Positions 15,274 through 21,008 of a stretch of 54,861 nt of DNA are shown one piece after another. How positions within the stretch are numbered: position 1 is the first letter of the stretch; each line of letters begins with the position of its first letter. Source of the stretch: an uncultured Enterobacterales bacterium. Its GTDB lineage: Bacteria > Myxococcota_A > UBA796 > CAJQPC01. The notes beneath the pieces are model-generated. The model was not told the DNA's origin, did no database searches, and saw nothing but the letters and a program-made list of their open reading frames with translations. Where the stretch lies: positions 1-54,861 of the forward strand of contig CAYFPX010000004.1 in the NCBI GenBank assembly GCA_964344945.1, written 5' to 3'. Both the position numbers and the translations under genes were made by a program.

Positions 15274-16326
15274 ATGGCGCTCGGTTCCGCTCTGCGCTTG
15301 CTGCACGCGCTGTCGCGCGAGCGGGTTCCCCCGTGCCACGTGTCACTCGACCGGCTCGAGGCCCGGGGGGCCGGACCGGTCCAGGTCTACCGCTACGAGC
15401 CCAGCTCGCCGCCGGTGCGCGGGCACGTGCTGGTCGCCCATGGGCTGTCGCCGCGGGGGCCGCGGGATCCGCAGGTCGTGCGGGTGGCTTGTGCGCTGGC
15501 CGCCGCCGGGTACACCGCCTGGGTTCCGCGCCTGCCGGAGCTGGCGCAGCTCAAGCTGTCGGCGACCACCGCAGACCGCCTCGCGGGCCTGGTCGAAGCG
15601 CTCGCGGAGCGCACAGGCCAGCCCCTGGCCCTGCTCTCGACCTCCTGGACCGCGGGCCTGTGTCTGCAGGTGGCGTCGCGGGAGTCCGTGGGACACCGGG
15701 TCAGCGGGATCTGCGCCGTTGATGCCGTCACGGAGCTGGCCCCTTGGCTCGACTGGCTGCTCGCCGACCAGGCCTCGGACCCCCTCGGGCGGATCCTCGT
15801 GCTCCGCAACCTGCTGCCGAGGGTGCGAGTCCTTCCGGCGGCTGTCGCCGAAGCCCTCGAGGTGGGCGCCCGGGACCTGCTGCAGGCTCGGGCAGAGCCC
15901 GCCCTGCCCCGGTTCCTGGAAGCGGCGTCCCCGGAGTGTCGGGACCTCGTCCGGGCGCTCGCCGGCGATCTCGCGGTCCGGCGAGACCTGGTGGGGCCGC
16001 TGCTGGAGGCCTCGGCGGACCTGTCGCGGGCCTTGGACCACGGGCCCGCGCTGTCCCGACTGGAGACCCCCGTGCTGCTGCTGCAGGGGGGCGCCCTGCC
16101 CGCGGGCCACCTCCAGCGGCTCCACGACCGCCTGGCTGGTGCCGGCGTGCCCGTCCGCACAGAGGAGGGCTCCCTCGTCGGCCCGGCGGATCTGGCCACC
16201 CGGATCGCACTGTTCCGGGGGCTGCGCTGGTGGATCACCCGCCTGCGTAGGCCCCAGCGTCAGCGACTGTCAGATGTCGCTGGTCAGTACGAAGCGCCAG
16301 TCGGTGTCGTCCAGGCCTCGCTGTAG
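15274..16326 (+). CDS. Alpha/beta-hydrolase-fold-like protein with degenerate nucleophile elbow
   Basis: ATG preceded by GGAGG (15265-15269). HVLVAHGL... then LLSTSWTAG where G-x-S-x-G is expected. The 3' end overlaps the convergent gene by 57 nt. Confidence 0.5.
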   Translation: MALGSALRLLHALSRERVPPCHVSLDRLEARGAGPVQVYRYEPSSPPVRGHVLVAHGLSPRGPRDPQVVRVACALAAAGYTAWVPRLPELAQLKLSATTADRLAGLVEALAERTGQPLALLSTSWTAGLCLQVASRESVGHRVSGICAVDAVTELAPWLDWLLADQASDPLGRILVLRNLLPRVRVLPAAVAEALEVGARDLLQARAEPALPRFLEAASPECRDLVRALAGDLAVRRDLVGPLLEASADLSRALDHGPALSRLETPVLLLQGGALPAGHLQRLHDRLAGAGVPVRTEEGSLVGPADLATRIALFRGLRWWITRLRRPQRQRLSDVAGQYEAPVGVVQASL

Positions 16327-17073
16327 CAGGCTGGCCGTGGCTGCGGGCCGGATCCCCTCCTCTCGAAGTGCGCGTGCCAGCGGATCCACCGCCGCCAGGC
16401 AGAACATGTGGGTGTGCCCGGCCACCGGCTGGGAGGCCCCGACCTCGGCCCCTGGCCCGTGCTGGACGTGGATCAGCGGCAGCGGCGCCCCGGTGCTCTC
16501 CAGCACCAGGTCCTTGATGCCCCGCAAGGAGCGGTAGGTGAGGGGTCCCAGGTGCTCGGCCAGGCGGGGAGCCAGCGCGGCCATCGCAGGGGCCTCCAGG
16601 CTGTAGATCCCCAGGGTCCCCGCGAAGGTCAGTGGCGCGACGGGGAAGCGCTGGAACAGCGCCACGAGCGGATTCGGCCCCGGCCCGGGCGGGTCCATGG
16701 ACACCAGGTAGCCCCGGGGGCACCGTCGCAGCCCGTCGGCCAGCCCGGCGCGGAAGATGCGGAAGGGGATCCAGCGAGCCTGGGCGTCGGGGTGGACCTT
16801 GAGGTCCGCCAGGTACCAGCAGGGCACGGGTTCCTGGCCCACCCGGGGCGCGACGCGGCGCAGCATGCCCGCGCCCACGCCGACCACCCGGTCGCCGTCG
16901 ACGGCCGCGTAGTAGTGCAGGTCGCCCAGCCGGTGGAAGAAGGCGAAGTAGTCGTCGCCGTGGTCGATCTGGAAGTGGTCGTCGCCCAGGGGATAGCGGG
17001 CGATGGCCTCCAGGGCTGCGACACCCGGGCCCCACCGGACCTCCAGGTCCCGGGTGATGCGGTGGACCCTCAC
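16270..17073 (-). CDS. GNAT-like acyltransferase (weak) with C-terminal extension
   Basis: GTG 17073 overlaps the upstream stop (GTGA). Core ...AAVDGDRVVGVGAGMLRRV...WYLADLKVHPDAQ resembles the GNAT beta4-alpha3 region. Confidence 0.45.
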   Translation of the reverse strand: MRVHRITRDLEVRWGPGVAALEAIARYPLGDDHFQIDHGDDYFAFFHRLGDLHYYAAVDGDRVVGVGAGMLRRVAPRVGQEPVPCWYLADLKVHPDAQARWIPFRIFRAGLADGLRRCPRGYLVSMDPPGPGPNPLVALFQRFPVAPLTFAGTLGIYSLEAPAMAALAPRLAEHLGPLTYRSLRGIKDLVLESTGAPLPLIHVQHGPGAEVGASQPVAGHTHMFCLAAVDPLARALREEGIRPAATASLLQRGLDDTDWRFVLTSDI

Positions 17074-18807: not shown

Positions 18808-21008
18808 CGTGCGCGAGGGTGCCACAGGGTGACGCCCGCCGGCAGCACGAGCAGGTCCGCCGCCAGGGCGACGAGCAGGGCCACCGCCGACCACAGGCCG
18901 AAGGCGGCGATGGCGCCCACCTGGGCCGTGGCCAGCACGCCGAGGCCGGCGGCGAGCACCCCGGTGGTCGCCACCAGGGCTCGGCCGGTCGACCGCGCAG
19001 CGGCCCGTGCCGCCGCGTCGGGGGCCAGGGTGCGCAGCCCCTCCCGGAGCCGGTGCACCTGGTGCACGGTGTCGTCGACGACCAGCCCGAGCACGATGGC
19101 GGCGACCGTGGAGGTCGCGGCGTCCAGGGGGCGGCCGGTCCAGGCCAGTCCGCCGAAGACCGCCGCCACGGGCAGCAGGTTCACGGGCACGATCCAGACC
19201 AGCCAGCCCACCGAGCGCAGCGCCACCACCAGCACCCCGAACACCGCGAGCAGGCTGGTGCCGAAGCTGCGCAGGGTCGAGGTCGTGATGCGGTCCATCT
19301 TGGCGACGTAGAGGGGCACGTACCCGGCGGGGGTGGCCGTGGCGCCGGGGGGCAGGTCCGCGCGGGCGAGCAGGGCCTCGGTGCGGTCCTGGAGCGCGGC
19401 AGCGGAGGTGAGAGGCGCCCCGAAGGTGACCCGGAGCACGTCGGGTGGGCGCACCAGCCGATCGAGATCCGTGCCCCGGGAGCCCCCGTAGAGCAGCAGG
19501 AGCTGGTCGAGCTGAGCCGGGTCGGCCGGCAGGGAGCCGGGTCCTCCGAGGGTGCCATCGAGGCGCTGGAGAGCGGGCACCAGCGAGGTGCTCCAGGGGG
19601 CGACGCCGGCGGAGCGCACCTCGGCGAGCCAGGCCTCGACCGCCTGGAGGAGAGGGGGGCGCAGGACCCCGGCCGGGTCCTGCACCTGGACCTCCAGGGG
19701 CACCACGCCACCGACGGCCCGCTCGACCGCGTCCAGGTCCTGGCGGACCGGGTGGTCCGGCGGCAGCAGGGCGGCCGAGTCGGTGTCCACCGTCACGCCG
19801 AGGCTGCTGGCCCCCAGGAGCGCTGCGATCCCCGCCGTGACCGCCAGCGTGCGTCGGGGCGCGGCGGTGGCCAGCCGGGCCAGGCCGCCCGCCAGCGCTC
19901 CGGCGCGGCGGGAGGCGCCGGTGGCGGGCACCCAGGCGGTGCCGGGCAGGGCGGCGACGCAGATCACGCTGGAGACCAGGGCCCACGCCACGCCCGCGGC
20001 GCCGAGCAGGCCCAGCTCCTGGAGCACGGGCATCGGCGCCGCGGCGAGAGACGCGAGTCCCAGGGCCGTGGTCAGGGTCGTCAGGCCGCAGGGGGCCAGC
20101 ACCCGCTCCAGCCCGCCGACCACCCGGGCGTCGAGCGAGTCCTGCTCCGGGGTCTCCTCGACCGCCAGCAGCAGGTGCACGCAGTCCGCGACCCCGAGCA
20201 CCAGGACCAGGGTCGGCACCACCATCGTGACCAGGTTCAGCGACCGCCCGGTCCACCCGGCCAGGCCCAGGGTGGCCACCGACGCGCCGGCCACGGCGAC
20301 CGCGGACAGCAGCGCCGGCCGGGCTCGCCCGAAGGCCCAGCCCAGGCCCAGGAGCACGACCCCCAGGGCGAGTCCGTAGAGCCGCGTGCCTTCGCTGCGG
20401 CTCAGGGCGTTGAGGGCCTGGGTGAGCACGGCGACCCCGGCCAGGTGGTGCGCGTGGGGCGCGAGCACCTGTCGGATCTCGGCGAGCACCGCATCGCGGC
20501 GAGCGTCGTCGTCCACGGCCCGGGTCAGGCGGGCCTCCAGCAGCAGGCCGTCGGCGGCGGCGGTGACCGCGGTGCCGCTCAGCAGCGGGTCGGCCAGGGC
20601 CTCGGCCAGCACGGCCTCGGCCTCTGGCAGGGGGCCTTCGGCGGGCAGCAGCGGCGCGACCTGGAGCCAGTCCTCGCCGGCGCGGGGCAGGAGCACGGTG
20701 CTCAGGGAGCGCACCTCGCGGACATCGGGCAGGGCCTCCAGGGCGCGGCTGATGCTTCGGAGACGCTCCAGGTCGGAGCCGCTGACCCGCCCGGAGTCCG
20801 CGGGCAGCAGCACGAAGAGCGCTTCGTCGTGGCCGAAGTCGCGCTGGAAGGCCCGGTAGGCCTGGAGCTGGGGGTCGTCGGGGGCGAACCAGACCTCCAG
20901 GCCGTTGTCGACGTGGAGCCGGGGCAGGCCCAGGGCGGCCAGGGCGACAAAGGCCGCCCAGAGGAGGAGCAGGGGGTGGCGGTTGCGGCGGAGTGACCGG
21001 GCGAGCAC
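18804..21008 (-). CDS. RND superfamily / MMPL-type exporter
   Basis: 734 aa with two blocks of multiple TM helices separated by soluble loops. N-terminus ...LGLPRLHVDNGLEVWFAPDDPQLQAYRAFQRDFGHDEALFVLL is typical of MMPL/HpnN-like proteins. GTG start. Confidence 0.8.
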   Translation of the reverse strand: MLARSLRRNRHPLLLLWAAFVALAALGLPRLHVDNGLEVWFAPDDPQLQAYRAFQRDFGHDEALFVLLPADSGRVSGSDLERLRSISRALEALPDVREVRSLSTVLLPRAGEDWLQVAPLLPAEGPLPEAEAVLAEALADPLLSGTAVTAAADGLLLEARLTRAVDDDARRDAVLAEIRQVLAPHAHHLAGVAVLTQALNALSRSEGTRLYGLALGVVLLGLGWAFGRARPALLSAVAVAGASVATLGLAGWTGRSLNLVTMVVPTLVLVLGVADCVHLLLAVEETPEQDSLDARVVGGLERVLAPCGLTTLTTALGLASLAAAPMPVLQELGLLGAAGVAWALVSSVICVAALPGTAWVPATGASRRAGALAGGLARLATAAPRRTLAVTAGIAALLGASSLGVTVDTDSAALLPPDHPVRQDLDAVERAVGGVVPLEVQVQDPAGVLRPPLLQAVEAWLAEVRSAGVAPWSTSLVPALQRLDGTLGGPGSLPADPAQLDQLLLLYGGSRGTDLDRLVRPPDVLRVTFGAPLTSAAALQDRTEALLARADLPPGATATPAGYVPLYVAKMDRITTSTLRSFGTSLLAVFGVLVVALRSVGWLVWIVPVNLLPVAAVFGGLAWTGRPLDAATSTVAAIVLGLVVDDTVHQVHRLREGLRTLAPDAAARAAARSTGRALVATTGVLAAGLGVLATAQVGAIAAFGLWSAVALLVALAADLLVLPAGVTLWHPRAR

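Follow-up and report, generated by a model that had tools for sequence, protein, structure and literature searches.

A gene trio of a DUF3419 transferase, a CADD-like dimetal oxygenase and a tandem-GNAT-fold protein is conserved across bacterial phyla and may build an amphiphile

The window analysed here is a stretch of 54,861 nt (contig CAYFPX010000004.1 of assembly GCA_964344945.1, from an uncultured bacterium of the GTDB lineage Myxococcota_A, UBA796, CAJQPC01), and this study concerns four overlapping genes on its minus strand, which form a real operon. The first gene encodes an RND-superfamily transporter of the MMPL/HAE3 type with a sterol-sensing domain (18804-21008, 734 aa, GTG start). 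It is followed by the gene of a CADD-like, haem-oxygenase-like dimetal oxidase of family PF14518 (hereafter HDO; 18100-18807, 235 aa, ATG start), by that of a divergent DUF3419/BtaA-family transferase (PF11899) dependent on S-adenosylmethionine (SAM) (17070-18125, 351 aa, ATG at 18125), and by that of P267, a protein with a tandem-GNAT fold and a putative N-acyltransferase (16270-17073, 267 aa, GTG start).

The window has a G+C content of about 72% (72-76% in the operon region), and the raw lists of open reading frames (ORFs) from this region are full of spurious frames. The gene frames were judged by sliding G+C content per codon position. The value at the third position, 0.88-0.98, tracked all four minus-strand frames that had been claimed in an earlier sequence-only reading of the window, and its phase shifted exactly at the gene boundaries. 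The three overlapping junctions listed in that reading were also seen when the sequence was read again: the stop codon of the RND gene and the start codon of the HDO gene have ATGA in common (18807-18804); the TGA stop of the HDO gene ends at 18100 and the DUF3419 gene starts with the ATG at 18125, which gives a 26-nt overlap (18100-18125) taken as translational coupling; and the DUF3419 stop and the P267 start have GTGA in common (17073-17070). The chosen start codons were supported because the N-termini of orthologues align from residue 1, and no in-frame ATG, GTG or TTG alternative was present ahead of the conserved FSQVREDP motif of the DUF3419 protein. A metagenomic relative (locus L057), with proteins 66-81% identical to those of the window, has the same four genes and the same three overlaps between other flanking genes, and the operon was therefore delimited to RND-HDO-DUF3419-P267. 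The operon showed neither a sigma-70-like promoter nor an intrinsic terminator, and no Rfam element, riboswitches included, was found near it or in seven loci carrying the cassette described below.

The 351-aa protein matched PF11899 over its full length (profile positions 9-382 of 385, 3.1e-34, 119 bits), and the DUF3419 label given to it in the sequence-only reading was thus confirmed. Matches to Methyltransf_12, 25 and 23 were weak and below threshold, and a sequence search of the PDB gave nothing useful. In the AlphaFold2 (AF2) model (predicted local distance difference test, pLDDT, 94.5), about 180 aa, all of them helical, are inserted into a class-I Rossmann core; the best of the solved structures were N-, O- and C-methyltransferases, all of them weak matches (template modelling, TM, score <= 0.34). 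A more canonical subfamily is represented by the DUF3419 proteins of two other loci in which the gene is linked to an RND homologue (L059 and L061). Their PF11899 scores are 170-226 bits and their identity to the window protein is 27-29%; where the latter has SQVREDP and ASGGCT, they carry the motifs AQVWED and S(G/A)GDN. Fifteen columns are invariant in six aligned DUF3419 sequences, which comprise the two arrangements of the cassette (types A and B, see below) and the canonical-like copies.

HDO matched PF14518 (Haem_oxygenas_2) above cutoff at 2.1e-17 and PF03070 at 1.9e-5, in agreement with its previous labelling as haem-oxygenase-like. The window protein reached no NCBIfam model, TIGR04305 included, and type-B copies weakly match the BesC and CADD models. 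When a profile of the cassette HDOs was compared with the PDB, the best match was the 4-aminobenzoate synthase CADD/CT610 (1e-12), which the single sequence matched at only E 1e-5. Residues E91, H101, E154, H185, D189 and H192 of the window HDO align with E81, H88, E142, H174, D178 and H181 of CADD, and a metal site of three histidines and three carboxylates is present. All six ligands, together with Y36 (equivalent to CADD Tyr27), are invariant in 46 HDO orthologues of both types. The amine-donor Lys152 of CADD is replaced by I164, a residue conserved in at least 93% of the orthologues. Since a self-sacrificial 4-aminobenzoate synthase of the CADD type is recognised by Tyr27 and Lys152 together, HDO does not appear, from its residues, to be such an enzyme.

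The window P267 had no sequence match in Pfam, NCBIfam or the PDB. Its AF2 model, built from 51 homologues (pLDDT 92.5; predicted TM score, pTM, 0.87), was matched by Foldseek to tandem-GNAT structures with E values of 8e-7 to 1e-4, TM scores of ~0.45-0.52 and identities of 6-16%. These matches included Eis-like proteins, the clavulanate tandem GNAT, MAB_4324, N-myristoyltransferase (NMT) and a histidine acyl-transferase, with the structures 2wpw/2wpx and 7q3a among them. Some P267 orthologues, at 22-27 bits, also exceed the PF00583 cutoff (20.7 bits), and on the basis of the predicted fold and these orthologues the former description as GNAT-like could be made more precise, as tandem GNAT. 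P267 is the most conserved member of the cassette, and its family is small: 1.84 billion proteins gave 271 representative clusters at E <= 1e-30. Its C-terminus has the form LTS[DE][IV] at the extreme end in 51 of 51 sequences. In NMT the C-terminal carboxylate is the catalytic base, and the C-terminus of P267 may, by analogy, act in the same way.

One genome per species was scanned with the P267 alignment, which yielded 52 loci (the species of the window is not among them). Partner genes were scored by tblastn and by a synteny count, and 46 loci with enough upstream DNA could be evaluated. DUF3419 and HDO genes were found directly upstream of P267 on the same strand in 42 of these 46 loci, in Cyanobacteria, Myxococcota, Planctomycetota, Bacteriovoracales and other metagenome-assembled genomes (MAGs). 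Among all loci, the order HDO-DUF3419-P267 of the window (type A) occurs in 27 and the order DUF3419-HDO-P267 (type B) in 17. Pfam recognised DUF3419, PF14518 and a weak GNAT domain in the type-B proteins; their DUF3419 and HDO are ~30-35% and their P267 ~45-50% identical to the window's. Outside the lineage of the window, the DUF3419 homologues most similar to the window protein (48-58% identity) belong to filamentous cyanobacteria, Sandaracinaceae and Planctomycetota. Two such loci, one in Calothrix sp. PCC 6303 and one in a Sandaracinaceae MAG, have an HDO upstream and a 267-aa protein downstream of DUF3419, and both of these flanking proteins are clear orthologues of the window proteins (42-50% identity). 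The culturable cyanobacteria that carry the cassette include Calothrix PCC 6303 and PCC 7103, Dulcicalothrix PCC 7102 and Pseudanabaena.

Natural fusions of HDO and P267 also exist. The protein P0299 (locus L063) contains a complete HDO and comes directly after a type-B DUF3419 gene whose stop codon overlaps its start, and in P0247 the C-terminal half of HDO is joined to P267. Because the P267 family is small, the trio is adjacent in 42 of 46 loci and such fusions occur, chance adjacency was excluded. The conserved unit is the trio of HDO, DUF3419 and P267, and the RND gene is a lineage-specific addition. Of the four-gene unit proposed in the sequence-only reading, the trio was thus retained across phyla, whereas the RND gene accompanies it only in the close relative L057, where all four genes are syntenic.

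Most junctions within the trio overlap, chiefly by 1-4 nt, or leave a gap of a few bases, and the HDO/DUF3419 overlap measures about 26 nt in 18 of the 27 type-A loci (23 nt from the gene calls of Calothrix). The length of this overlap stays nearly constant (~23-26 nt) from the window, with its 72% G+C, to low-G+C cyanobacteria (type-A loci L002-L052). Such conservation goes beyond what the packing of genes in an operon would require, and its cause may be a constraint on translational coupling or on the stoichiometry of HDO and DUF3419. Two loci of Planctomycetota (L046 and L038) are without an adjacent HDO, and the upstream gene there encodes an unrelated secreted protein without a Pfam match. 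That an N-terminal extension of DUF3419 in these two loci was a fused HDO was ruled out, since the G+C content by codon position shows a separate upstream gene. In locus L022 the cassette is disrupted. In another contig of Planctomycetota (L041, 4170-6821), P267 is inverted between HDO and DUF3419, which are both on the opposite strand, by a local rearrangement.

When the flanking ORFs were clustered, the sole other recurrent family was that of a membrane FA_desaturase-family gene, found immediately upstream of the cassette in 23 cyanobacterial loci, where this enzyme holds the first operon position in place of the RND transporter. The recurrent small ORF clusters 6, 17 and 29 were discarded as antisense shadow ORFs of the cassette genes. 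Outside cyanobacteria, the neighbours are unrelated housekeeping genes (RpiB, AlaRS, DAHP synthase, aspartokinase-DAP decarboxylase and FTHFS). No methyltransferase family recurs beside the cassette in the 52 loci, and none is encoded in the operon of the window or its flanking genes, which agrees with the earlier statement that a BtaB-type methyltransferase is missing and that the operon is not a standard pathway to the betaine lipid diacylglyceryl-trimethylhomoserine (DGTS). The single exception is in a Bacteriovoracales MAG, where the gene of a 183-aa membrane methyltransferase of the PEMT/ICMT family (L043, 7768-8319) lies 17 nt upstream of a type-B cassette and on the same strand; this enzyme could substitute for a BtaB-type enzyme in methylating the head group.

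The RND transporter of the window matched the Pfam domains Sterol-sensing (8.5e-12), Patched (1.6e-10) and MMPL (5.7e-6), all above their cutoffs, so that its RND/MMPL assignment held, and it has about 11 hydrophobic segments. The NCBIfam models were all reached under cutoff (HAE3 127 against 352 bits, 6.7e-37; actII 68 against 875 bits; HpnN 36.5 against 752 bits), and no solved structure was detectable in the PDB by sequence. Its clade has very few database members (52 at E <= 1e-10). Homologues with 31-66% identity were examined in five contexts, all of which are lipid or acyl operons, and in three of the five a DUF3419 gene is adjacent. One is the four-gene operon of L057. In L059 (43% identity) the DUF3419 stop overlaps the RND start, with GNAT-domain and AMP-binding genes nearby, and in L061 (36%) the RND gene is followed by DUF3419 and then by a homologue of the L059 GNAT protein. 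The other two are L060 (36%), with the order RND-GNAT-amidase-AMP-binding, and L062 (31%), where genes for a type-III polyketide synthase, an acyl carrier protein (ACP) and an AMP-binding protein precede the RND gene. The clade therefore sits habitually inside acyl or lipid operons and has been recruited at least two times next to DUF3419 and GNAT enzymes. This context is our strongest evidence that the product of the operon is amphiphilic and handled by the RND protein, which is probably an exporter or shuttle of that product.

A second system, without HDO, is seen in L059 (6850-10268) and L061 (267-5252), where genes for a large GNAT-domain protein and a DUF3419 of the more canonical subfamily accompany the RND gene. 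In L059 a PEP-utilising enzyme is also encoded nearby, and the DUF3419 gene is split by an assembly frameshift. No HDO was found by tblastn in L059 and L060 or among the called genes of L061. The GNAT proteins of L059 and L060 were rejected as orthologues of P267, as neither locus gave a tblastn match to P267 and the hhalign probability was 3% (L060). L059 and L061 thus resemble the window in having an RND protein of the same clade (36-43% identity), a DUF3419 protein and a GNAT-domain protein, but the DUF3419 is of the other subfamily, the GNAT protein is unrelated and HDO is absent.

The reading we favour, which is held tentatively and at somewhat less than an even chance, is that the core trio puts a modified homoserine-type group, the 3-amino-3-carboxypropyl (acp) group of SAM, on a hydrophobic acceptor, and that N-acylation, oxidative tailoring and then export follow. 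The product would in that case probably be an amino-lipid related to diacylglyceryl-homoserine, the intermediate on the way to betaine lipids, but not identical with it. The DUF3419 protein would transfer the acp group from SAM to a hydroxyl (or amine) of the lipid acceptor with release of methylthioadenosine, as BtaA does on diacylglycerol. P267 would N-acylate the new alpha-amino group from acyl-CoA or acyl-ACP. HDO would use O2 to hydroxylate, desaturate or oxidatively decarboxylate the head group or the acyl chain, presumably in close association with P267, because natural HDO-P267 fusions occur. The MMPL/HpnN-like RND protein with its sterol-sensing domain would, in this lineage, remove the product from the inner membrane. 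The acceptor, the order of the steps and the product are what we infer here from the observed operon, the families and folds of its proteins, their intact catalytic residues, the synteny, the fusions and the context of the RND clade.

To our knowledge, BtaA and BTA1 are the only characterised DUF3419 proteins, and with both of them diacylglycerol receives the acp group of SAM. The residues common to the cassette and the canonical-like, RND-linked DUF3419 proteins support the favoured pathway, and hints of lipid come from the FA_desaturase-family gene upstream of the cassette in cyanobacteria and from the PEMT/ICMT-family gene in L043. Several facts weigh against it. The DUF3419 protein is divergent (119 bits on PF11899 compared with 170-226 bits; 27-29% identity), so that its acceptor and the group it transfers could differ from those of BtaA. 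The nearest characterised relatives of HDO (CADD, and BesC for type B) act on amino-acid or protein side chains and not on lipids, and the best match of the cyanobacterial desaturase-family protein is GntB, a hydroxylase of free arginine, with 74 bits where the cutoff is 380. None of the core enzymes HDO, DUF3419 and P267 has a membrane segment. The acyl-CoA loop of the window P267 is degenerate (VHPDAQARW, compared with the family consensus VHPxYRG), and no RND homologue lies within 10 kb of the cassette in the 52 other loci. The sequence-only reading had suggested a pathway that builds and exports either a modified amino-lipid or a small acp-containing metabolite. This suggestion found support, and nothing in the checks of families, synteny and known pathways contradicted it; between its two options, the RND context favours the lipid-like product. 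The wider claim that the trio is a previously unrecognised cross-phylum route to homoserine-ether or N-acyl-homoserine amphiphiles, serving as membrane lipids or signals, is possible, though we regard it as rather doubtful.

A small non-lipid metabolite derived from the acp/homoserine unit of SAM, for which the GNAT protein would provide tailoring or self-protection and the RND protein would be an efflux pump, is the main alternative, which we nevertheless hold to be on the unlikely side. Candidates are an oxidised O- or N-alkyl-homoserine (e.g. an alkoxyvinylglycine-like antimetabolite) or an N-oxygenated and acylated compound (a hydroxamate- or opine-like metallophore). Transfer of acp underlies nicotianamine and the staphylopine-type metallophores, and RtxC, which resembles fatty-acid desaturases, desaturates dihydrorhizobitoxine. 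Such a product would suit the amino-acid chemistry of the closest relatives of HDO, the best score of the cyanobacterial desaturase-family partner on the L-arginine hydroxylase GntB, the solubility of the three core enzymes and the patchy phylogenetic distribution, which is typical of secondary metabolism. However, the GntB match lies far under its cutoff, as given above, the RND clade is found in lipid or acyl-chain operons in five of five contexts, no precursor-supply, non-ribosomal peptide synthetase or uptake genes recur beside the cassette, and the only characterised DUF3419 enzymes act on lipid. Alternatively, the DUF3419 protein might be an ordinary methyltransferase, in which case the product of the module would be a methylated, oxidised and acylated lipid or metabolite without any homoserine unit. 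The sub-threshold Methyltransf matches, the class-I Rossmann core with methyltransferases as its best structural matches and the low identity to the canonical-like DUF3419 proteins are all compatible with this explanation. Since acp transferases share the class-I fold, however, the fold cannot discriminate between the two activities, and the structural matches are weak (TM <= 0.34), while the PF11899 match is full-length and 15 columns are invariant between the cassette and the canonical-like proteins. A plain methyltransferase is thus considered improbable.

Much less credit is given to the idea that the trio is a LuxI-independent synthase of N-acyl-homoserine lactones (AHLs) or N-acyl-homoserines. 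In this scheme the GNAT protein would acylate the amino group of SAM, DUF3419 would carry out an intramolecular acp transfer (lactonisation), HDO would oxidise the acyl chain and the RND protein would export long-chain signals. A SAM-using enzyme is indeed combined with an acyltransferase here, LuxI synthases are GNAT-like, long-chain AHLs depend on RND efflux, and AHL production in the absence of a known synthase has been reported for some cyanobacteria. The scheme is an analogy only: the proteins are unrelated in sequence to LuxI, LuxM and HdtS, genes for LuxR-type receptors do not recur in the neighbourhood, and the obligatory dimetal oxygenase is left unexplained. The least probable explanation, to which we give hardly any weight, is a standard or degenerate DGTS pathway or a chance juxtaposition. 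Membership of DUF3419 in the BtaA family speaks for the former, but there is no BtaB-type N-methyltransferase in the operon and none recurring in the 52 loci. Chance is opposed by the partnership of HDO and the tandem GNAT with DUF3419 in 42 of 46 loci and by the fusions.

Compared with DGTS synthesis by BtaA/BtaB in bacteria and BTA1 in algae and fungi, the operon likewise has a DUF3419/PF11899 transferase in a lipid-related context. It differs in that the operon and its flanking genes are without a methyltransferase, the obligatory partners are instead a dimetal oxygenase and a tandem GNAT, and the cassette DUF3419 is a divergent subfamily, the divergence being measured against the canonical-like RND-linked copies. 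The cassette is, moreover, present in cyanobacteria, in which we know of no established betaine lipids. HDO has the PF14518 fold of CADD/CT610, BesC and UndA and keeps the metal ligands and the Tyr27 equivalent of CADD, but the relationship to CADD is remote, Lys152 is replaced by Ile, and the genetic context consists of a SAM transferase and a GNAT protein instead of folate genes. P267 resembles Eis, the clavulanate tandem GNAT, MAB_4324 and NMT in having two GNAT-like halves in one chain, and NMT also in its strictly conserved extreme C-terminus. Unlike Eis and NMT it is much shorter (267 aa), with 6-16% identity, and the window copy reaches no GNAT hidden Markov model. As in the HpnN, MmpL and HAE3 systems, the window RND is a sterol-sensing-domain transporter of a clade located inside lipid-biosynthesis operons, but it scores far below the curated cutoffs (36 against 752 bits for HpnN; 127 against 352 bits for HAE3).

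No paper linking DUF3419 with an HDO or a GNAT protein was found in the full-text literature (paywalled papers and MIBiG lay outside the scope), and within the same scope the earlier remark that the operon cannot be matched to a described cluster also held. The enzyme combination is conserved, was not previously described in the literature searched, and may constitute an amphiphile pathway based on a SAM/acp transferase. HDO enzymes have repeatedly given unprecedented oxidations, and an orphan HDO clade here gains a fixed pair of partners, which makes a tractable three-gene system for finding its substrate. For the BtaA family, the trio points to a second widespread role without BtaB or betaine lipids. 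An amino-lipid or acylated homoserine metabolite is suggested in culturable cyanobacteria and in Bacteriovoracales, Myxococcota and Planctomycetota, that is, in predatory or complex bacteria. The sparsely populated sterol-sensing-domain RND clade is linked to DUF3419-made products, which offers a testable new cargo for lipid transport. If the amphiphile pathway is real, a CADD-like dimetal oxygenase would act on an acp group, a chemistry undescribed for any HDO, the new RND clade would have its first cargo, and many filamentous cyanobacteria would make a BtaA-dependent lipid.

The genes around the operon in the window (encoding proteins of 487, 291, 1364 and 350 aa) have no counterpart in any related locus. 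Upstream on the minus strand (21319-27776) lie three consecutive genes for the 487-, 291- and 1364-aa proteins, with coding-type G+C at third codon positions. These proteins gave nothing above threshold in Pfam (all three) or NCBIfam (two scanned); the 487-aa protein has only a sub-threshold LEH match, and the 1364-aa protein is a large orphan. On the other side, the 350-aa protein without a family match is encoded by a convergent plus-strand gene (15274-16326), the 3' end of which overlaps that of P267 by 57 nt (16270-16326). L057 has no counterpart of this gene and carries a DUF2779 gene in its position.

A long inverted repeat (21095-21286) lies upstream of the RND gene, in an intergenic region of 310 nt. 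Its arms (21095-21156 and 21225-21286) are 62 nt each and 87% complementary, with a 68-nt spacer, and each arm holds two copies of a ~26-nt unit, TGT[C/G]AGCACCCCCC..TGCGAC. A 25-mer related to this unit occurs at 34738-34762. The repeat was rejected as part of the system because the close relative L057 does not have it. Possible identities are an operator array or an insertion resembling a repetitive extragenic palindrome (REP) or a miniature inverted-repeat transposable element (MITE). Elsewhere in the window, the region 10153-13251 contains the gene of an acyl-CoA dehydrogenase that, at 793 aa, is unusually long; it has an ACAD9/ACADV domain at its C-terminus and is extended by ~240 aa at its N-terminus. 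A convergent TetR-family regulator gene (12541-13251) follows. Two sulfatase-family genes (6135-7307 and 8213-9619) and one gene of the CotH-kinase family (33342-35306) were also located.

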